Assembly (NCBI GenBank): GCA_944390835.1
Contig: CALXQT010000024.1
Location: 3,037-67,036, forward strand
Direction of reading: 5' to 3'
Origin: an uncultured Alphaproteobacteria bacterium
GTDB taxonomy: Bacteria; Pseudomonadota; Alphaproteobacteria; Rs-D84
Length of the DNA: 64,000 bases
Positions 3,314 to 41,687 of the stretch are shown here, one piece after another; position 1 is the stretch's first letter; each line of letters opens with the position of its first letter. The notes under the pieces are model-generated. The model searched no databases, was not told the DNA's origin, and saw nothing but the letters and a program-made list of their open reading frames with translations. Position numbers and translations under genes: made by a program.

Positions 3314-5574
3314 TATTTATTTGGTGTCCTTTTGAATTTTTTTGTTGTTTTTTTGTTGTTTATTAAGTCAATAGCCGTTTCTAAATCTGGTTTTTCTTTA
3401 ACTGAAACATTTACTCTATTGGATGAAATATACGCACCGTATCTACCAGTTGGATAATAAAATATAGGTTTTCCAGTTACGGGATTTTCACCGATATTTA
3501 TTGGTTCTGACTTTTTTGTCCCATTTTCTAATAGTTCGTTTGCTATATCCAAAGTTATAGTTTCAGAAGTATATTGTTTTGCAGGAACATTCTTTTGCCC
3601 ATCTGTAACGTATGGACCAAATTTACCAATCCTGAAAGAAATTCCATTACCTAAATCAATATTTGTATTTTTGTTTTTTTCTATCTTTTCTTCAGTTTGT
3701 GTTTTTGTATCAATATCGATAAGTTTTTTTGTATAATCACATTTTGGATAGTTTTCACAACCTATAAAAGCCCCATACTTTGATAATTTAATACCAAGTT
3801 TTCCACCACATTTTGGACATTTGTCGTTACCATCAACAAACAAGTGATCGTGCATAACTTCATTAATAGCATTAATTATTTCTGTTGTTTTTACACCCTT
3901 TGCGTCATCTATCATAGATGAGGTTGGAGTCCAGAAATTACGTAAAGCGTCTAACTTATTTTGTTTTCCGTTTGATACGTCATCTAAAGTATCTTCTGTT
4001 TTTGCAGTAAAATTAACATCAACAAGATCTTTAAAGTATTTAGACAAATATGCAGAAAGAACCCAACCACCAGATGTCGGATGAAAACGACGTTGTTTAT
4101 CTTGTTCAACATACTTTCTATCAACTATAGTAGACATAATTGTAGCATATGTAGATGGGCGACCGATACCAAGTTCTTCTAGTTTTTTTACCAACGATGC
4201 TTCTGTGTAACGTGCAGGTGGTTGAGTAAAATGTTGTTCTGGCAATAAATCAATAATTTTGATTTCATCATTAATAGATAACGTGGGTAATTTAGATTCA
4301 CCATTTTCTTCCGCATCATCTTTATCTTCTGTATAAACTCGCATAAAGCCGTCAAATGTACGCGTTGTACCAACAGCATGAAATATAGATTTTTTGTTTC
4401 TTGTTTCTATATCTGCAGATACACTATCAAATTCAGCGTTTGACATTTGACACGCAATTGTACGTTTCCATATTAAATCATATAATTTTGCTTCATCACC
4501 AGTTAGTTGCGTTTCTGGTTTATCAAAATGTGTCGGGCGAATTGCTTCGTGTGCTTCTTGGGCGTTTTTCGATTTCGTTATATATACGTTTGGTGTTTTA
4601 GGTAAAAATGATTCACCATAAGTTTTTGATATGTAAGCACGTATATCATCTATTGCCTCGGCAGATAAGTTTGTTGCATCTGTACGCATATAAGTTATTA
4701 AACCCTGTTCGTATAACTTTTGTGCGGTCGCCATAGTTCTTTTAGAAGAAAAATATAACTTTCTGGCCGCTTCTTGTTGTAATGTACTTGTTGTGAATGG
4801 TGCCGCGGCGCGACGTGACGTTTTCTTTTTATCAATAGAAATTACATTTGCCAAGATTTCTGGTTTGCCAATTTTATCTAAAATATCATTCATCTGTGAA
4901 TGATTTTCTATTGTCATTTTTTCAATTTTTTTACCGTCAACATTAGATAATTGGGCATTAAAAGTAGTGTTTTTTATATTACAAGCTGCGGTTAAAGACC
5001 AATACTCAATCGGTTTGAACGCTTCTATTTCTTTTTCACGATCAACTACTAATTTTACCGCTACAGATTGAACACGACCAGCACTGCGTCCTAAATTTCT
5101 ACGCCATAATAAAGGTGATATACTGAAACCAATTAAATAATCTAATGCGCGCCTAACAAGATACGCATCGACTAAATCTTTATCTATTTCACGTGGGTGT
5201 GCAATTGCATCCATTACAGCTTTTTTTGTAATTTCATGAAACGCTACACGATATACCTTTTTCCCATCCAGTACTTTTTTAGAATTTAATATATCTAAAA
5301 TATGCCAAGCAATAGCCTCTCCTTCTCTATCCGGATCTGATGCAAGATATACAGCATCAGCTTTTTTTAATTCATTTGTTATTTGTTTTATCTGTTTTTC
5401 TTTACCTGGCATAATTTGCCATTGCATAGCAAAGTCTTTTTCAGGGTCAACACTTCCATTTTCTGGAACAAGATCACGCACATGACCGACAGACGCAATA
5501 ACTCGCCATCCTTGGCCTAAGTATTTTTCAATCGTTTTTGCTTTTGAAGGAGACTCTACTATCAACAGGTTCAT
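3313..5574 (-). CDS. topA: DNA topoisomerase I (TopA) with C-terminal Zn-ribbon repeats and a Lys-rich tail
   Basis: N-terminus MNLLIVESPSKAKTIEKYLG is a TOPRIM; C4 zinc ribbons CPKCGGKL...CENYPKC. The true start is probably ATG at 5574, since the track ORF extends 24 codons upstream into rodA. The stop overlaps the dnaG start (TAATG). Confidence 0.9.
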   Translation of the reverse strand: MNLLIVESPSKAKTIEKYLGQGWRVIASVGHVRDLVPENGSVDPEKDFAMQWQIMPGKEKQIKQITNELKKADAVYLASDPDREGEAIAWHILDILNSKKVLDGKKVYRVAFHEITKKAVMDAIAHPREIDKDLVDAYLVRRALDYLIGFSISPLLWRRNLGRSAGRVQSVAVKLVVDREKEIEAFKPIEYWSLTAACNIKNTTFNAQLSNVDGKKIEKMTIENHSQMNDILDKIGKPEILANVISIDKKKTSRRAAAPFTTSTLQQEAARKLYFSSKRTMATAQKLYEQGLITYMRTDATNLSAEAIDDIRAYISKTYGESFLPKTPNVYITKSKNAQEAHEAIRPTHFDKPETQLTGDEAKLYDLIWKRTIACQMSNAEFDSVSADIETRNKKSIFHAVGTTRTFDGFMRVYTEDKDDAEENGESKLPTLSINDEIKIIDLLPEQHFTQPPARYTEASLVKKLEELGIGRPSTYATIMSTIVDRKYVEQDKQRRFHPTSGGWVLSAYLSKYFKDLVDVNFTAKTEDTLDDVSNGKQNKLDALRNFWTPTSSMIDDAKGVKTTEIINAINEVMHDHLFVDGNDKCPKCGGKLGIKLSKYGAFIGCENYPKCDYTKKLIDIDTKTQTEEKIEKNKNTNIDLGNGISFRIGKFGPYVTDGQKNVPAKQYTSETITLDIANELLENGTKKSEPINIGENPVTGKPIFYYPTGRYGAYISSNRVNVSVKEKPDLETAIDLINNKKTTKKFKRTPNK

Positions 5575-29430: not shown

Positions 29431-29895
29431 TTATTGTTTTCTTTTTTTTCTAAAATCGTCTAACGACACTATCCTGCCTTTGTCAGGAACGCTGCCTGGT
29501 TTTTCGTCCAACGGTAATTCCATGTCGTTATCTGCCGCAGATACCCCTTTTGGGTGAAAGGACAGCATAAAATCAACAGACGGATCTTTAAATTCAACCA
29601 GCGCAGAAAAAGGAACTCTTATAAAAAATGGCCGTCCGTCAAAAGTTAATTGAACGCCAAATTCTTTATCAGATACATGTAAGTTATTATATGAATATTG
29701 CAAAACTATCGTCATAATATCTGGATAACGTATACGAAGAAAATCTGGCAGTACAACACCTGGAACGCGTGTTTTAAAAGTTATATAGAAATGCGTTCCT
29801 TCACCAAGACCGTTTACTTGTGCGTGTATCAGTGCTTCTTTCACAACTGATTTTAATGCGTTATCTAATAAAGTTTGATAATCAATTTTACTCAT
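29431..29895 (-). CDS. sspB: ClpXP adaptor SspB, alphaproteobacterial type
   Basis: HFYITF, YPDIMTIVLQ, PFSALVEFKDPSV and the C-terminal ClpX-binding tail VSLDDFRKKRK resemble Caulobacter SspB-alpha. The start overlaps recF. Confidence 0.55.
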   Translation of the reverse strand: MSKIDYQTLLDNALKSVVKEALIHAQVNGLGEGTHFYITFKTRVPGVVLPDFLRIRYPDIMTIVLQYSYNNLHVSDKEFGVQLTFDGRPFFIRVPFSALVEFKDPSVDFMLSFHPKGVSAADNDMELPLDEKPGSVPDKGRIVSLDDFRKKRKQ

Positions 29896-30997
29896 TTGTA
29901 TTTCCTGCGACCAGTATATTATTTATTTCGCCGTTCTTGCAAGTAACAAATATGGCATTTGGGACGTTTGCAAAAATATTTGCGTCAAGTCCAGTGGCCC
30001 ACACTTGTGCGTCTGTTTCGCCTAACGCTTTAAATAAAAGCGCACGTGCGGTTTCATCAAGGTGTGCCGCTGCTTCGTCTAATAATATTATTGGACTGTG
30101 TTTAGTTTTGGTATGAATTAGTTTTGCATGAGCTAAAATTAAGTTTATTAAAACGGTTTTTTGCTGTCCGGTACTTGTAAGTACGGCTGGTAAGTTCAAG
30201 ATTTTATTAAAAACACCGAAGTCTGATTTGTGCGGTCCGTCTAAAATCATTTTGTCTCCGACAAGTTCACGATTATTCTGGAGGTAAGTTAAATATTGTC
30301 GTTCGGCGGCGGCATTTGTTATTCCATCTATTAACATTTGCTCTATTTGTCCGGATACGGTCACAGCACAATCGGTTAAAAAATAGTTTAATTCACCGGC
30401 ATATTGTATACGTGCTGCGGCAATTGCTGTTGCGGTTCCGGCTATTTGTGCGTCAAGAGCATCAAGCCAATTTTTATCATTGCCGTTTTTTAAAGCAAAG
30501 GCACGTTCTGATAATAGTTTTGAAAGTCGTGCCACCCTGCCCGCATGTGATGTATCAAAACTGGCTGTAAGACGGTCAAAAAAAGCCCTGCGGTCTGAAG
30601 CAGATTCAATAAATAACCTATCTTCTTTAGGAGTAAGCCAAACAATACGTAGTCGGTTACCCAAATCACCAAGAGTCGCGCTGTCGCCATCTATGCGGGC
30701 TTTACGGTTAGACTCGTTATTTGTAAAATAAACACATAATTCTGTATCGTCTTCTAGCTCTGCAGTAACAGAAAAACCACCGTCACCAGTAAAGCGTGCG
30801 ACATCTGACATCGCCGCCCCACGTAAACCTTTGTCGCCAGATAATATGGATACTGCTTCTAATATTGCGGTTTTCCCTGCGCCATTGGGTCCTGTAATTA
30901 TTATGTTACGGCATCCATTTGTTTTTATTCTTGCGGCCGCATGATTACGAAAATTATATAGTGTAATCGCTTTTATCATGGCCAAATCATACACCAT
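29888..30997 (-). CDS. recF: DNA replication and repair protein RecF
   Basis: Walker A GPNGAGKT, SMC-like signature, 369 aa. Confidence 0.9.
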   Translation of the reverse strand: MVYDLAMIKAITLYNFRNHAAARIKTNGCRNIIITGPNGAGKTAILEAVSILSGDKGLRGAAMSDVARFTGDGGFSVTAELEDDTELCVYFTNNESNRKARIDGDSATLGDLGNRLRIVWLTPKEDRLFIESASDRRAFFDRLTASFDTSHAGRVARLSKLLSERAFALKNGNDKNWLDALDAQIAGTATAIAAARIQYAGELNYFLTDCAVTVSGQIEQMLIDGITNAAAERQYLTYLQNNRELVGDKMILDGPHKSDFGVFNKILNLPAVLTSTGQQKTVLINLILAHAKLIHTKTKHSPIILLDEAAAHLDETARALLFKALGETDAQVWATGLDANIFANVPNAIFVTCKNGEINNILVAGNTNE

Positions 30998-35839: not shown

Positions 35840-36703
35840 CGATAAATTCATCTTCTTTTGCATCTCAATTAATACAGGTGTTTTTATACCAAGGTTGTGT
35901 GCACGCTGAATTAGACCCGCCAAAGCAAAAATCCCCTCTACGGTACCTTCTGGTTTTTCGCCTTTGGCTATTGCTATGCCCCCAGCAAAATTTCGGCTTG
36001 TCGCAGATGTCGCAGATAAAAATAGGTCCCCTATTCCACATAAATCTAAGAATGTAGCCATTTTTGCCCCACTCTTTAAACCTATTTCCATAACCTCGTT
36101 CCATGCACGAGTAAATATCATTGCTCGTTCGTTTTCACCGGCCGCCGCAATAAAGTTATAACCGCATATTAATGCAACGGCGTTTTTACCAACTCCGCAC
36201 ATTTCTGCTCCGATTATGTCATCGCTTGCATTAAGGTATAATAAATTTAATATCTTTTTACCCGTTTCGATTGCTTTTGGATTTCCAGCTAAGGTGCTAC
36301 CTGTTGGAACACCGCGTGCAACCTCTGCTGCAAATTGCGGACCAGATAAAACGCCATAGTTTTCGGCTTCGGGTAGTTCTGTTTTTATTATTTCAGACAT
36401 AAAGTCGCCAGTTGAACTTTCTGCACCTTTGGTACAAATAATTATAGTTTGTTTTTTATATACTGCCTTTGCTTTACGAATAGTTTCACGAAAAAAAGCG
36501 GCGGGCGTTACAATTAACCAGGCTTCGCATTCACCTATTTTAGCCATTTCACTGGTTATACTTAAATTATTTGGCATTTTAACGCCATCAAATTCTTTTA
36601 ATAATCCGTCATAAGACCATAAAATAACATCAGATCCACCGCGGGCGGATATTATTGCCAGCGCTGTTCCCCATGCGCCTGCACCTATTACACCAACTTT
36701 CAT
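35837..36703 (-). CDS. gpsA: Glycerol-3-phosphate dehydrogenase [NAD(P)+]
   Basis: MKVGVIGAGAWGTALA Rossmann N-terminus; 288 aa. Confidence 0.9.
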   Translation of the reverse strand: MKVGVIGAGAWGTALAIISARGGSDVILWSYDGLLKEFDGVKMPNNLSITSEMAKIGECEAWLIVTPAAFFRETIRKAKAVYKKQTIIICTKGAESSTGDFMSEIIKTELPEAENYGVLSGPQFAAEVARGVPTGSTLAGNPKAIETGKKILNLLYLNASDDIIGAEMCGVGKNAVALICGYNFIAAAGENERAMIFTRAWNEVMEIGLKSGAKMATFLDLCGIGDLFLSATSATSRNFAGGIAIAKGEKPEGTVEGIFALAGLIQRAHNLGIKTPVLIEMQKKMNLS

Positions 36704-38316
36704 CTTATTTCCCTTAACTTTTTTTGGATTTTTTTGACGATAACTAAACCATCGTCAGATAATTCAATAGCACGTAAATACGCATCTTTTGCTAATTTTT
36801 CATCTCCTGCAGCAACGTATAAATCACCAAGTTGTTCAAACAACGATGAACAGGAAATAGAAATCTCACCAACACGTGCAAGTACATTTAATGCGGGTTC
36901 AACACCTTCGCGAACCGTTATTACGCGCGCCAACGTATCCCATGCAATAATGTCTGTAGGATCCTGTTTAACCAGCGTCATGGCGTAATCATACGCGTTT
37001 TCTATCTCGCGACCTTGTGAAGCCCATATTTTTGCTTGTAAGGCTAAGATTTCCCCGTCTAGCGGCAGGGTTTGTGATGCCTCGTGTAAATCCGTTTGAG
37101 CTTTGTCTAAGTCACCAAAAACATAATATATATGCGCCCTGCTCTTTAAAAAGAATGCACGACCCAATTCTGTCAAATTTTCATCATCTAAGGCCATGTT
37201 TACAATATTAAGAGCCTTACGCTGATTATTGTTTTGAATATTATAAGCAATTAATTTGTTTATAGCAGGAACAAATAAAGGATTTTCTTTAACCGCGTTT
37301 TTTAAAACATGTATATTGTCAGTTTTTTCTGCCTGGCGTAATATCGCAAATAAATAAAACGGGCTGTTTTTTGTAATGTTTTGAAAATATGCGTCAAAGT
37401 CCCCTTTGTTGTTATAGAAGAACTGCCCTAAATAATAATCTATAGCATCGCTTTTTTTGCCGAAGTCGGGACTAGTTATTTGTGCAAAACGTAACAACAA
37501 AATAGATAAATCAGAATACATCATGATTTGAGTATGAGAAACAGTTTGCACTAAACTAAAAGCTAATTCGTTTTTCTCGCCAGAAAACATTGACCAATCC
37601 GGTATATTTTTATAATCCAACATATACATTCCGCCGGGACGAGAAGTAAAATCATCGTGTAGTTTATTTGCCGCCTCTGTCAGATTATTATGTTGATAAA
37701 ACGACATCAAATACAAATAATCGTTAATATTCATAAAATCCACTCTGACATTTTCGAATGCTTCTTTAGCATTTTCTATATCACCTGTTTCTGCATATAT
37801 TTGACCTGATATAAAATTTTGCCAAGATGCATTTGTCGGCAAGGTTTTTATGAATTTTAAAGCGTCTTTTTCTTTCCCCGTCGCTACAGATGCCCATATA
37901 CGAAGTGGTGCCGCCAAAGCAGATTCGTCTTTTTTATGTCGCTGATATAATTCTTTCCATTTATCGTTTTTTACAAGATAAGCGTCATAAATCAATCGCG
38001 AAGCAGCGTTTTTTTCTTCTTCAAGAACTTCAACCCCATCTGGCATATCTCCGCTTAGGAACTGAGATAAAAACTTTGTCGATTGAACGATTGGGTATTC
38101 TGTATCTGTTAATTGTGCGGAAAACTTTGACGCATTTTCAAAATCATTAACATAAATAGCGTGCTGGGCAGCCAAAAAAGCCCCATATTTATTTTCTGGA
38201 TAAATGTGATTATTAATATTGGAATCAGCATAATGTTGATTCCAAACAGCACCACTAACAACTATAACGGCGGCGATTAATAATGCGCCTATAAATAACG
38301 TTTCTGCTTTTTTCAT
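36700..38316 (-). CDS. Membrane-anchored TPR-repeat protein (538 aa)
   Basis: N-terminal TM followed by multiple TPR-like helical repeats. The stop overlaps the gpsA start. Confidence 0.55.
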   Translation of the reverse strand: MKKAETLFIGALLIAAVIVVSGAVWNQHYADSNINNHIYPENKYGAFLAAQHAIYVNDFENASKFSAQLTDTEYPIVQSTKFLSQFLSGDMPDGVEVLEEEKNAASRLIYDAYLVKNDKWKELYQRHKKDESALAAPLRIWASVATGKEKDALKFIKTLPTNASWQNFISGQIYAETGDIENAKEAFENVRVDFMNINDYLYLMSFYQHNNLTEAANKLHDDFTSRPGGMYMLDYKNIPDWSMFSGEKNELAFSLVQTVSHTQIMMYSDLSILLLRFAQITSPDFGKKSDAIDYYLGQFFYNNKGDFDAYFQNITKNSPFYLFAILRQAEKTDNIHVLKNAVKENPLFVPAINKLIAYNIQNNNQRKALNIVNMALDDENLTELGRAFFLKSRAHIYYVFGDLDKAQTDLHEASQTLPLDGEILALQAKIWASQGREIENAYDYAMTLVKQDPTDIIAWDTLARVITVREGVEPALNVLARVGEISISCSSLFEQLGDLYVAAGDEKLAKDAYLRAIELSDDGLVIVKKIQKKLREIR

Positions 38317-38342: not shown

Positions 38343-38900
38343 ATGAATAATAAAGCGAAATTTAATCGATATGCGGAATTATTAATAGATTGGTCAAAGC
38401 GTATGAATTTGGTGGCCCCAAGCACGCTGACGGATATAGAATCAAGGCATTTTGCTGACAGTGCTCAATTATCTGACGTTTTGCCCAAAAATGCTAAAAT
38501 CGTTGATTTAGGCAGTGGCGCCGGCTTTCCTGGAGTTGTTTTGGCTATTCTTGGTTGGCAAGTAGTTTGTATAGAATCTATTGGTAAGAAGATTGCTTTT
38601 TTAAATACATTAAAATCAGATTTGGAACTTGATAATTTAACAATTTATCATGGTCGTGTAGAACATTATATTTCTGACCTGCCCCGTGATGATAAAATTG
38701 TTTTTACTGCTCGGGCATTTGCGCCGTTGGTAAAAATTATGGATTATGTTGCAAAAACACCATATCCTCTTTTTTTGTTAAAAGGCCGGGAAGTATCGGC
38801 AGAAATAGATGTCGCAAAGCGTAAATATAAGTTTGATTATGAATTAATACCATCAAAAACAGGCGATGGCTTTATAACAATTATACGAAAATACCGGTAG
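38343..38900 (+). CDS. rsmG: 16S rRNA (guanine527-N7)-methyltransferase RsmG (GidB)
   Basis: SAM motif VDLGSGAGFPGVVLAI; 185 aa. Confidence 0.85.
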   Translation: MNNKAKFNRYAELLIDWSKRMNLVAPSTLTDIESRHFADSAQLSDVLPKNAKIVDLGSGAGFPGVVLAILGWQVVCIESIGKKIAFLNTLKSDLELDNLTIYHGRVEHYISDLPRDDKIVFTARAFAPLVKIMDYVAKTPYPLFLLKGREVSAEIDVAKRKYKFDYELIPSKTGDGFITIIRKYR

Positions 38901-38913
38901 TTTCATATGAAAC
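38898..38913. promoter_or_regulatory. parS-like palindrome TAGTTTCATATGAAAC (copy 1; overlaps the rsmG stop codon)
   Basis: 14-bp perfect palindrome GTTTCATATGAAAC. Compare the canonical parS TGTTTCACGTGAAACA. Confidence 0.45.
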
Positions 38914-38932
38914 AAATTATATTTATTTGATA

Positions 38933-39847
38933 TTAGTGCGTTTTTTGATTTGATAAAATTAATTGATTTTTGCCGGCAATTGCACACACTAACGAGTCTA
39001 TGGTGTTTAGCATTTTGTTTTTTTGTTCCTGGCTTGCGGCGTTCCACAAATTAACGCTGCCTGCCCTGCTTTCAAATTGCCATAAGGGGGCCCATAAATT
39101 TAATCGAGGGTTGAATAAAAATTTATTATATTCATTACAAAGATTGTTTGTGACGTATATACCTGGCTTTTGAGTTTGTATCGCATTATAAATGCTTGTT
39201 TTGTATAAACCGCGATTTATTTCGTTTAGAAATTGTTCGGTCGCACATTGAATGATTATATCGGCAATTTGTTGATTATTAAAATCTAGCGGCCATTGTA
39301 AATTTTGTTTTTTTGCCTCGGTAATAATAAGCCGGTCTGCTTTTTTTATAAACTTTCTGTTGCTGGGAATAGGTAATTTCATTTCGTACCTATAATCAAG
39401 CGCTTCTATGATTTCAGCGGCCGGTGCGATGATTTCGCTTTGTGCAGCAATCATACCACGTGTCTTTGGCGAATAGTACCATAGGTTTTTTGTTATGTTG
39501 GCTTTTCGGGCATGCTCTTTTTCGTGTCTTAAAACTAATGTTGCCTGAGCATTGTTGTTGTTACAGAAACGAACGGTTCGAGGATTTGTGCTATTGGTTT
39601 CAAAGTGCTTTATAATTATTTTACCAGAATTAGGTAAAAAAACACCAAGCGCAATTATATCATCGCTATATACCATTTGATCGGTGACCCAAACGGTATC
39701 TGTTTGCACTGATATAGTTTTTTTTAAATATTTAGTCCCAGTATTTTCCGGCTTTTTGGTGTTGTTGTTTAGTGCATATAAACCAAGCCCTGTTCCATAA
39801 CAAAGCAAAACCGTTGCCGCAAAAGAATAAAGGTGCTTAAATTTCAC
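38933..39847 (-). CDS. Hypothetical secreted protein (304 aa) with an HEKEH (HExxH-like) motif
   Basis: N-terminal signal peptide (ATVLLCYGTGLGLYA). Opposite strand to the flanking rsmG and parA. Bounded by the two parS-like palindromes. Confidence 0.5.
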   Translation of the reverse strand: MKFKHLYSFAATVLLCYGTGLGLYALNNNTKKPENTGTKYLKKTISVQTDTVWVTDQMVYSDDIIALGVFLPNSGKIIIKHFETNSTNPRTVRFCNNNNAQATLVLRHEKEHARKANITKNLWYYSPKTRGMIAAQSEIIAPAAEIIEALDYRYEMKLPIPSNRKFIKKADRLIITEAKKQNLQWPLDFNNQQIADIIIQCATEQFLNEINRGLYKTSIYNAIQTQKPGIYVTNNLCNEYNKFLFNPRLNLWAPLWQFESRAGSVNLWNAASQEQKNKMLNTIDSLVCAIAGKNQLILSNQKTH

Positions 39848-39893
39848 ATCTTTAACGTATATCTAAAAAACAATTTTGTCAACTATGTTGTTT

Positions 39894-39909
39894 AGTTTCA
39901 TATGAAACT
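39894..39909. promoter_or_regulatory. parS-like 16-bp perfect palindrome AGTTTCATATGAAACT (copy 2), upstream of parA
   Basis: Identical 14-bp core to copy 1; about 130 bp upstream of the parA start. Confidence 0.45.
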
Positions 39910-40040
39910 TTGTGTAGTAATTTGTTTTTTGTGTATTTTTTTATTTTAAATATTATTGCCTTGACTGAATTGTTTGCTTTATTCTATTCTTTAAACGAAC
40001 AAGATATTAAATGTTTTTACTGTTGATGGAAGAAGGATAG

Positions 40041-40811
<771 letters not shown>

Positions 40812-41687
40812 ATGTCTAAATTTGGTTTGGGGCGCGGTTTGGCAGATTTAAACAAAGAAATGGGTACAATACCAGACATTTCGATATTAACTGGGGTCGA
40901 GCGTGTAGTTGTAAAGCAAATTCCTTTAGCACAAATTGGCGCTAATCCAGATCAGCCGCGTAAGGTTTTTAAGGAATCAGAATTAAGTGATTTGGCTGCT
41001 TCTATAAAAGAAAAGGGAGTTTTGCAACCCATATTATTACGTGCAGTTTCTGGACGACCATATATGTATGAAATTGTCGCTGGAGAGCGTCGTTTTCGCG
41101 CCAGTAAATTAGCAGGATTGACGGAAATTCCGGCATTGATAAAACAAATTACACCAGAAAATGCGATGGAAATAGCCCTGATTGAAAACGTTCAACGAGA
41201 GAATCTAAATCCAATAGAAGAGGGTAATGCATATAAAAATATAATGGAGAAATGTGGTTATGAATTATCAGACGTTGCACGTCTGATAGGGAAGTCTGAA
41301 AGTTATATAAAAAATATTATGCGATTGGATCCTTTGCCAGTTGATGTTAAGCAAATGGTTGAAAACGGTGATTTGTCCGCATCGCATGCGCGTGTATTAG
41401 TTGTTGCAGAAAATCCGTCGGAATTAGCGAGGATAATTTTTGATAAAAAGCTATCTGTTGCAGAAACAGAAAAACTTGTAAAAGGTGTTAATCGTAGACC
41501 CAGCAGTAGAGCATACGTTGCAAAAACAATAGATGCTGATACTGTTCGTGAAATCGAATCGAAAATTTCTAAAAGATTGGGTGTAAAAGTAAAATTGCAA
41601 GAAAGAAAGGGTGGAGCAGGGCAGATTGTTTTATCCTTTGCTACACGCGTTCAAATGCAGGAATTAGTAGACAAACTTACCAGATAA
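40812..41687 (+). CDS. parB: Chromosome-partitioning protein ParB
   Basis: ParB box GERRFRA, HTH, C-terminal dimerisation domain; 291 aa. Confidence 0.9.
   Translation: MSKFGLGRGLADLNKEMGTIPDISILTGVERVVVKQIPLAQIGANPDQPRKVFKESELSDLAASIKEKGVLQPILLRAVSGRPYMYEIVAGERRFRASKLAGLTEIPALIKQITPENAMEIALIENVQRENLNPIEEGNAYKNIMEKCGYELSDVARLIGKSESYIKNIMRLDPLPVDVKQMVENGDLSASHARVLVVAENPSELARIIFDKKLSVAETEKLVKGVNRRPSSRAYVAKTIDADTVREIESKISKRLGVKVKLQERKGGAGQIVLSFATRVQMQELVDKLTR

Follow-up and report, generated by a model that had tools for sequence, protein, structure and literature searches.

[quoted passage not shown] In the canonical ParABS systems, with parS tGTTNCACGTGAAACa, residue R173 of ParB hydrogen-bonds guanine 1 and is invariable in parS binders, and the substitution R173Q alone abolishes binding unless a permissive lysine is added (PMC7383237). 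From a single site, ParB spreads roughly 2 kb (PMC5815017). In Noc, the Firmicutes protein that binds NBS (tATTTCCCGGGAAATa), the loss of R173 comes with extra basic “permissive” residues (PMC7383237), and the engineered ParB-to-Noc intermediates described by Jalal et al. 2020 (PtoN5 QKAG, PtoN6 QTKG, and PtoN11 QKKG) favour a hybrid parS/NBS site. The locus described here comes from Candidatus Enterousia, a reduced-genome group of Alphaproteobacteria (order Rs-D84) whose members have very small genomes of ~0.75-1.0 Mb (PMC12306168). Two palindromes at this locus are very probably the chromosomal parS sites of this bacterium, in a lineage-specific variant that is paired with a rewired ParB.

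In the window, meaning the whole 64-kb stretch of DNA that was analysed, the 14-bp perfect palindrome GTTTCATATGAAAC is present at 38900-38913 and again at 39895-39908, read as TAGTTTCATATGAAACAA at 38898-38915 and as TAGTTTCATATGAAACTT at 39893-39910. These two exact copies are the only matches to GTTTCATATGAAAC at up to two mismatches in the whole 64 kb, while shuffled sequence gave a mean of 0.55 such matches, exact ones being expected far more rarely. The first parS-like site (38899..38914, AGTTTCATATGAAACA) lies at the end of rsmG (38343..38900, forward strand; 16S rRNA m7G methyltransferase, GidB; Pfam GidB E=5e-38), the stop codon of which is contained in the site, as bases 1 and 2 of the 16-mer are the final two bases of the TAG stop and the inner 14-mer starts on its G. 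The second parS-like site (39894..39909, AGTTTCATATGAAACT) is a perfect palindrome over all 16 bp. It precedes the parA ATG (40041) by 132 bp and the parA -35 box by ~52 bp, and its upstream distance from the start of a 304-amino acid orphan gene, here X304 (38933..39847, reverse strand), is 47 bp. X304 is the open reading frame between both sites. The original prediction of a palindrome overlapping the rsmG stop codon with a second copy ahead of parA is therefore real, and its figure of 12/16 positions matching the consensus is correct for site 2 against canonical parS TGTTTCACGTGAAACA, but not for site 1, which scores 13/16. A search of the 64-kb window for canonical parS at up to three mismatches yielded no further match. 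Two sequences, GTTTCATATGAAAC and ATTTCAYRTGAAAT, are predicted candidate DNA targets of the window ParB, and ATTTCATATGAAAT is a predicted candidate target for comparing it with the ParB of an R177-type relative.

The position of the palindromes next to parAB was confirmed by the Pfam-supported genes downstream of site 2. These are parA (40041..40811, forward strand; Soj-type ATPase, with Pfam AAA_31/CbiA matches on both halves) and parB (40812..41687, forward strand; CTPase-type chromosomal ParB, with Pfam ParB_N at 8.5e-33, HTH_ParB at 1e-25, and ParB_C). The ParB carries a GERRFRA box at residue 91, and its closest relative in the PDB is Caulobacter ParB (6t1f, E=3e-49). A consensus scan places a likely parA-parB promoter at 39961..39990 on the forward strand (TTGACT, 18-nt spacer, TATTCT), and blocks of TTGAC and TATATTCT are conserved across 78 aligned parA upstream regions. 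The recF gene lies ~8 kb from the parAB locus, and GC skew across the window tracks gene orientation, with no clear switch by which an origin could be placed. The window parA is 94% identical to its nearest relatives over the full length and is interrupted by an in-frame TGA (40434-40436) at a position that is a glycine codon (GGN) in every relative listed. If this TGA is real, the ParABS system would be impaired here. An alternative genetic code (4 or 25) was considered for this codon and rejected, as long open reading frames are intact under table 11 and the TGA aligns with the conserved glycine.

Evidence for the identity of the sites also comes from related genomes. Both palindromes are found at the same two positions in 78 related genomes, with or without the 304-amino acid gene and with ParB identities to the window as low as 63%. 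In a scan of 80 related loci plus the window (1.59 Mb in total, ~20 kb per locus), RTTTCAYRTGAAAY was counted 147 times within rsmG-parA spacers and 2 times elsewhere, where ~0.2 were expected, so that the motif is nearly confined to this spacer beside parAB; each ~20-kb locus has two sites, as does the 64-kb window. Site 1 overlaps an in-frame stop codon in 72 of the 78 genomes (TAA in 61, TAG in 7, and TGA in 4), and parA begins 109-147 bp after the orthologue of site 2 in almost every relative, and 227 bp after it in L032. In an alignment of the 78 parA upstream regions, the best-conserved islands of the spacer are site 2 and the -35 box, and synonymous divergence is saturated even against the nearest relatives (dS >1). 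The orthologous site in one relative (L006) is AGTTTCACGTGAAACT, with a fully canonical 14-bp core, three others (L003, L007, and L025) have TGTTTCATGTGAAACA, matching the consensus at 15/16 positions, and a further one (L081) has AATTTCACGTGAAACA. In L085, the same ParB type occurs together with TATTTCATATGAAATA in a different gene context. Because some of the orthologous sites are canonical or near-canonical parS sequences, the palindromes are identified as parS, and the first of the two originally proposed readings, that these are the parS sites of the chromosome, is well supported by positional orthology, by conservation within saturated intergenic DNA, and by the near-canonical parS of the relatives.

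The second of those readings takes the palindromes for the terminal inverted repeats or the insertion scars left by a mobile element when it brought in the 304-amino acid gene. It starts from the arrangement of two near-identical copies bracketing a 1-kb segment that some relatives have and others lack, and from a 16-nt identity between the copies, TAGTTTCATATGAAAC, that extends in the window into a weak 54-nt direct repeat with 76% identity. Comparison of the spacers showed that the insert varies among relatives while the palindromes are kept either way: ~48 relatives without X304 have both, with their distances to rsmG and to parA unchanged. As both palindromes hold the same positions in all 78 genomes irrespective of the gene, they are not terminal repeats. 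Furthermore, recombination between the copies would leave a single site, yet most genomes lacking the gene have two, and the close relatives L007 and L025, which lack it, preserve a vestige of its 3' end (TAGTGT/TTAGTGC). The segment holds a single orphan open reading frame and no transposase or integrase, and the divergence of X304 follows housekeeping divergence (Pearson 0.78) with no anomalously similar pair. An insertion sequence or transposon would be expected to move between locations and to be missing its repeats from empty sites, whereas here the empty sites have the repeats and the gene is inherited vertically. Delivery of the gene by such an element is thus extremely improbable, and the mobile-insertion lead for the 1-kb segment has been removed as false.

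X304 itself is a clade-restricted, fast-evolving orphan that is ancestral to the group, has been passed on vertically, and has been lost by deletion repeatedly, and it is unrelated to the partition system despite lying between the parS sites. Its dN/dS is 0.12-0.26, and none of the 34 homologues found is named. The protein has an N-terminal hydrophobic signal or anchor helix, followed by an HExxH motif (H108, E109, and H112), N137-E138, E145, and D151; in 30 sequences, the HExxH motif, N137-E138, and E145 are invariant or nearly so. Searches of X304 yielded no Pfam or NCBIfam match and no PDB profile match, and its AF2 model (pLDDT 86.5) gave no significant Foldseek match in the PDB, a few zinc proteases appearing only at E>3. 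From these sequence features, X304 is probably an exported zincin-like metalloprotein.

Palindromes of this kind could also act as RNA hairpins, for instance as an rsmG terminator or a leader structure, given that a perfect palindrome can fold in this way and that site 1 lies right at the end of rsmG between convergent genes. The stems would be weak, however, at 5-6 AT-rich base pairs, with a folding energy near that of shuffled sequence (z -0.5 to -1.6). A terminator scan was silent on the palindromes, no U-tract follows them, and no Rfam match covers them. Across relatives they vary as a protein-type dyad would, with nothing but transitions at the centre and no compensatory stem changes, and a role as hairpins is accordingly very doubtful.

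A less remote alternative, though still an unlikely one, is that the palindromes are transcriptional operators only, serving ParB autoregulation or another dimeric regulator with no centromere role. Just two sites are seen, site 2 stands close to both the conserved parA -35 box and the divergent X304 start, segregation systems can degenerate in genomes as small as those of this clade, and the window parA has a nonsense codon. Against this, site 1 is at the 3' end of rsmG, where a promoter is unexpected, and is nonetheless conserved like site 2; the sequence family of the palindromes is that of parS; the CTPase and spreading motifs are kept in ParB; and the dN/dS of ParA and ParB (0.02-0.08) denotes strong purifying selection. 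Regulatory and centromere roles are, moreover, compatible with each other. With the palindromes taken as parS, ParB dimers would load on the site by the rsmG end and on the one within the parA promoter region, and would spread from them over the ~1-kb interval and the parAB promoter to form a partition complex. Feedback on parAB expression by way of site 2 is also possible.

The sites are members of the tGTTNCACGTGAAACa family, both in the window and in the orthologues, and are 16-bp palindromes accompanied by a cognate ParB, which has an N-terminal domain for CTP binding as well as an HTH, and by ParA with its in-frame TGA. What sets them apart is the way in which guanine 1 would be read, since the residue of the window ParB at the place of the invariant Arg173 is Glu163, and as the ParB is without Arg173 they are classed as a parS variant and not as a standard member. 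The clade site consensus is wATTTCAyrTGAAATw (TATTTCAYRTGAAATA), with adenine at half-site position 1, and the window genome carries the G/C form, GTTTCATATGAAAC. The centre of the site is CAYRTG, for which four interchangeable states exist clade-wide, CATATG being that of the window, and the state can differ between both sites within one genome. As one ParB must then serve two differing centres in single genomes, CATATG needs no change in ParB, and the proposal that a diverged CATATG core implies a co-evolved ParB did not survive the comparison, given that the centre varies freely across the clade. Co-evolved specificity fails for the centre, but recognition does appear altered elsewhere, with half-site position 1 (G/A) as the co-varying base.

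The recognition surface of ParB shows where this alteration would lie. The recognition helix, GKSESYIKNIMRL, comprises residues 160-172 (41289..41327, forward strand), and in a HMMER alignment to 6t1f, E163, K167, and L152 of the window ParB correspond to R173, A177, and Q162 of Caulobacter ParB, while S191 (codon start 41382) occupies the position of Caulobacter G201. In 79 clade ParBs, position 173 is never arginine (E in 59, A in 9, D in 6, V in 3, S in 1, and P in 1), R is found at position 177 in 72 and K in 7, Ser occupies position 201 in 79/79, and the glutamine at 162 has given way to L, M, or I. Among the 145 best representatives outside the clade, R173 is present in 142/145, G201 in 140/145, and Q162 in 125/145, and a basic residue at 177 occurs in only 1/145 (P0157, 53% identical). 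Residues G170, K171, S172, N178, and R204, which contact parS, are retained in the clade ParB. The new basic residue, R/K177, is one helical turn beyond 173 on the recognition helix and may compensate for the lost R173, with discrimination at half-site position 1 relaxed or shifted as a possible consequence. Judged from these residues, ParB-DNA recognition seems to have been rewired naturally in this lineage, and the window ParB would be expected to bind the palindromes; ParB could alternatively have lost sequence-specific binding, with another protein reading the palindrome. An independent ParB with E173 (P0243) was also observed, on a contig only 2.7 kb long that has no parS-like site.

The residue at 177 is associated with the base at half-site position 1. 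Guanine occupies this position in 23/28 half-sites of K177 genomes compared to 41/272 half-sites of R177 genomes, and the window genome is among the few K177 genomes and has G at position 1. Six further loci, representing four ParB clusters, agree with this association. The K/R state at 177 changes three times on the tree, and with only about three transitions, shared ancestry and AT mutation pressure could produce the K177/G1 association. In a tree listing read by eye, the position-1 base shows no evident dependence on residue 173 (E or A/V/S/P), and a Noc-like contact of that residue with adenine is therefore not required. A contact of this kind made by Glu173 had been considered as the driver of A1 and is weakened, with Ala, Val, Ser, and Pro found at 173 without an evident change in the site. 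We tentatively propose, at somewhat less than even confidence, that the ParB of Enterousia and its Rs-D84 relatives has been rewired by the loss of R173 and Q162 and the gain of a basic residue at 177 and of Ser201, that its centromere has moved to the parS/NBS hybrid TATTTCAYRTGAAATA, and that co-variation is ongoing (Lys177 with G1, Arg177 with A1). If true, the lineage would parallel in nature the ParB-to-Noc specificity paths made in the laboratory, having used other residues to get there.

A clade that keeps a working-looking ParABS locus without the “invariable” guanine-reading arginine is a natural experiment, with position 1 of the centromere drifting from G to A and its centre between C and T. 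It can reveal which contacts are dispensable, how a lost specificity residue is buffered, and whether site and protein co-evolve or not. In addition, parS predictors that rely on the canonical consensus would give wrong scores for these gut alphaproteobacteria, and a variant ParB/parS pair could serve for orthogonal labelling.

Finally, the locus can be placed among the known systems. With the canonical ParABS systems of B. subtilis and Caulobacter crescentus it shares 16-bp dyads with TTTCA...TGAAA arms and adjacency to parAB, and its ParB shares with ParB/Spo0J the ParB_N CTPase domain, the HTH, and the C-terminal dimerisation domain; the small cluster of sites also fits inside the ~2-kb ParB spreading range. 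Canonical parS differs in having G at position 1 and a CG centre, whereas Enterousia has A1 and a degenerate Y-R centre, and canonical ParB has both R173 and Q162, whereas Enterousia ParB lacks both and has R/K177 and S201. The Noc-NBS system resembles the Enterousia pair in its adenine-first half-site (ATTTC...), in the loss of R173, and in an extra basic residue, which in Enterousia ParB is at 177. The specificity residues of Noc were not found in the clade, however, as Q173, K179, K184, and R201 are replaced by E/x173, I/M/x179, no Lys184, and S201, and the site shares the A of parS at position 6, not the C of NBS. The Enterousia protein is, furthermore, alphaproteobacterial, the only ParB beside parA, and best aligned to ParB structures. 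The PtoN intermediates likewise lack R173 and combine a small residue at 201 with one added basic residue, and the Enterousia site (A1, A6) is a parS/NBS hybrid like the one that they favour. They differ in that Enterousia, which has Glu, Asp, Ala, or Val at 173, carries its basic residue at 177, a position not varied by Jalal et al. 2020.

A sequence scan of the window located the 14-bp perfect palindrome GTTTCATATGAAAC at 38900-38913 and 39895-39908, so that the two palindromes of the original prediction, flanking a 1-kb segment between rsmG and parA, are confirmed as written. The final base of the rsmG TAG stop codon (rsmG, 38343-38900) is also the first base of copy one, which lies within TAGTTTCATATGAAACAA (38898-38915; site 1). 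The second copy lies within TAGTTTCATATGAAACTT (39893-39910; site 2), where it is extended to a perfect 16-bp palindrome (39894-39909) whose end is 132 bp short of the parA start codon (ATG, 40041). No other copy of GTTTCATATGAAAC with up to two mismatches exists in the 64-kb window, and a scan with the 12-mer core at one mismatch returned the same two sites only. The 16-mers of site 1 and site 2 match the parS consensus TGTTTCACGTGAAACA at 13/16 and 12/16 positions, respectively, with no other window match at three or fewer mismatches. Pfam domains identify the flanking genes as GidB/RsmG, a split ParA, and a ParB with ParB_N, HTH_ParB and ParB_C. The two copies share 16 nt including the preceding TA (TAGTTTCATATGAAAC), and their identity runs on as a weak, T-rich 54-nt direct repeat (38898-38951 versus 39893-39946, 76%). 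As site 2 of the closest relatives has T...A outer bases, gene conversion between the two sites is possible in this genome.

The window ParB was used as a query against a species-representative genome collection, yielding 80 related loci (ParB identity 87% to 63%) in which rsmG, parA, parB and the 304-aa gene lying between the palindromes (38933-39847, minus strand) were located by tblastn. By title these are uncultured gut Alphaproteobacteria, in many cases Candidatus Enterousia, which falls in the uncultured order Rs-D84, an order with genomes of ~0.75-1.0 Mb (PMC12306168). The 304-aa gene is present between rsmG and parA in ~30 relatives (29-56% identity) and missing in ~48, where the spacer measures 130-350 bp. 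In almost all relatives, whether or not they have the gene, one palindrome lies over the rsmG stop and another 109-147 bp upstream of parA; in the gene-less locus L003, for example, these are AGTTTCATATGAAACT and TGTTTCATGTGAAACA (the latter 133 bp from parA), and in the gene-less L025 they are AGTTTCATATGAAACA and TGTTTCATGTGAAACA. The suggestion that the palindromes are terminal inverted repeats that delivered the 304-aa gene is therefore rejected, since comparison of the spacer, proposed as a check for an insertion, shows the sites staying in place whether the gene is there or not. Vertical divergence and deletion remnants contradict it further. Divergence of the 304-aa gene tracks that of rsmG, ParA and ParB (Pearson 0.78, 406 pairs) with no anomalously similar pair among the 406, its presence switches at least 15 times on a neighbour-joining tree, L007 and L025 retain a remnant of its 3' end beside site 1, and dN/dS of 0.12-0.26 indicates purifying selection. 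As such, the gene is ancestral, fast-evolving and clade-restricted, and has been lost by deletion many times. Four loci (L065, L079, L080 and L081) have a single palindrome in a very short rsmG-parA spacer (130-135 bp), the expected product of recombination or deletion between two sites.

The other suggestion, that the palindromes are parS sites, is supported by their distribution, conservation and sequence. In 1.59 Mb of sequence (the window and the 80 loci), 147 copies of the degenerate motif RTTTCAYRTGAAAY fall in rsmG-parA spacers and two fall elsewhere, against an expectation of ~0.2. The two copies outside the spacers are at L015 10898 and L040 4780, the former just downstream of parB, where it may be an extra parS of that genome. 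The palindromes persist although synonymous divergence of the window from its nearest relatives has reached saturation (dS >1), and no block in the alignment of parA upstream regions is better conserved than site 2 and the -35 box. In addition, canonical or near-canonical parS sequences occupy the orthologous positions of some relatives, including AGTTTCACGTGAAACT at site 1 of L006, TGTTTCATGTGAAACA at site 2 of L003, L007 and L025, and AATTTCACGTGAAACA in L081. L085 encodes a ParB that is more distant (60% identity) but of this rewired type; its parB has a PCC-domain gene before it in place of an adjacent parA, and TATTTCATATGAAATA lies a short way upstream of the operon (235-250). Readings at the RNA level, as a hairpin or terminator, fail at the palindromes, with weak hairpins (z -0.5 to -1.6), no call in a terminator scan and no Rfam match. 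We therefore regard the palindromes as predicted parS sites. The rsmG stop within site 1 (38898-38900 and orthologous positions in L002-L081) couples stop codon choice to half-site position 1, being TAG where the site starts GTTTCA and TAA where it starts ATTTCA (in-frame counts 61 TAA, 7 TAG and 4 TGA).

On the observed anatomy, and by what is known of the family, ParB dimers would nucleate at the end of rsmG and at site 2, close as CTP-dependent clamps and spread, and ParA would segregate the resulting complex. Site 2 lies ~52 bp upstream of the conserved -35 box of the likely parA promoter (TTGACT-18-TATTCT, 39961-39990). The sites are 995 bp apart in the window and ~60-160 bp apart in relatives without the 304-aa gene, both well inside the ~2 kb over which Caulobacter ParB extends from one site (PMC5815017); the 304-aa gene and the parAB promoter would thus fall in the stretch where ParB is expected.

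The parA gene is split by an in-frame TGA (40434-40436) into ORFs of 130 and 124 aa, where every relative listed has a glycine codon (GGN; ATG GGA TTT in L006), and is otherwise 94% identical to its closest relatives. The TGA could reflect polymorphism, recent mutation or an error in the assembly; the independent 1.3-kb contig L001, from a different sample, has its first base exactly one position past the variant, hinting at a polymorphism or assembly break. Upstream of rsmG is a divergent 538-aa TPR protein (36700-38316) rather than mnmG (gidA), as also in the clade and in L082, a contig from outside it; recF (29888-30997) lies ~8 kb upstream of rsmG with mreB beside it, and no dnaA was seen among the window ORFs examined. 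GC skew across the window tracks the direction of the genes and points to no origin there. Between the convergent parB and OmpA/Pal-like lipoprotein genes, 41680-41810 matches several Rfam sRNA and leader models below threshold and is most likely a shared terminator hairpin.

The 304-aa protein has an N-terminal hydrophobic helix, with a lipobox-like cysteine in many homologues, and invariant H108, E109, H112, E138, E145 and D151 (RHExEHARK...NEIxAPAAEIIEALD). Only 34 homologues were found in 5.8 billion clusters, all confined to the clade and none with a Pfam domain, and profile searches were empty. Its AlphaFold model is confident (pLDDT 86.5, pTM 0.80), with nothing significant in the PDB by Foldseek (best E=0.8). 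The protein is best described as a predicted exported, zincin-like orphan that may represent a new zincin-like fold or family; no functional link to partition is apparent.

Finally, in its parS reading, one of two that it offered, the original prediction took a diverged core (CATATG here) to imply co-evolved ParB specificity. The centre of the site does not bear this out. Across all sites the central dinucleotide is CG (8), TG (43), CA (39) or TA (60), a variation made up of transitions only with counts roughly fitting independent C-to-T drift of the two halves. Within a genome the two sites are often unlike (CG and TA in L006, TA and TG in L003), and one ParB must serve both; CATATG is therefore one of four interchangeable states and does not call for an altered ParB.

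ParB is altered nonetheless, at other positions; the idea of a co-evolved ParB is sound in outline, though not for the bases it named. The window protein was aligned residue by residue to Caulobacter ParB 6t1f (GKSRSHVANTMRL paired with GKSESYIKNIMRL in the window), with published numbering equal to chain index + 10, an offset that reproduces R173, T179, A184 and G201. In the co-crystal with half-site G1T2T3T4C5A6C7, R173 hydrogen-bonds guanine 1, and further conserved contacts to DNA are made by Q162, G170, K171, S172, N178 and R204. R173 does not vary among parS-specific variants, and the single change R173Q abolishes binding if it is not accompanied by a permissive lysine (PMC7383237). In 79 clade ParBs, residue 173 is never arginine (E 59, A 9, D 6, V 3, otherwise S or P), residue 162 is L, M or I, residue 177 is R (72) or K (7), and residue 201 is S in all 79, with K171, S172, N178 and R204 retained. 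An HMMER scan of 1.84 billion cluster representatives gave a best 150 ParBs, or 145 after removal of four clade members and the frameshifted P0158; among these, R173 is found in 142, G201 in 140 and Q162 in 125. The only one with a basic residue 177 is P0157 (53% identity; I173, K177, G201), apparently from a sister lineage. On its contig, L082, the 80-bp rsmG-parA spacer has no site, and two hybrid sites lie elsewhere, TGTTTCACGTGAAATT and TATTTCACGTGAAACC (495-510 and 4782-4797). Both pair a G half with an A half, and TATTTCACGTGAAACC falls within the coding region of rsmG.

Position 1 of the half-site varies with residue 177. Genomes with R177 have A in 230 of 272 half-sites, and the seven with K177, the window included, have G in 23 of 28. 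K177 is found in two clades apart from each other, and L002, nested among K177 loci, has reverted to R, making three transitions; each of the two L002 sites reads A in its left half and G in its right. Six further loci from an exact protein look-up agree (AAAA with R177; two or three G of four with K177). The position-1 base does not seem to follow residue 173, be it Glu or one of Ala, Val, Ser and Pro. We therefore infer that loss of R173 relaxes position-1 readout and that the basic residue gained one helical turn further on contributes affinity, and perhaps a degree of base preference. The co-variation involves few independent events, and ancestry and AT mutation pressure could lie partly behind it.

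The interest of this finding is that a whole clade's ParB, in a variant of a known system, is without the canonical guanine-reading arginine. The clade site consensus, wATTTCAyrTGAAATw, shares the adenine at half-site position 1 with the Noc-binding site and the adenine at position 6 with parS.
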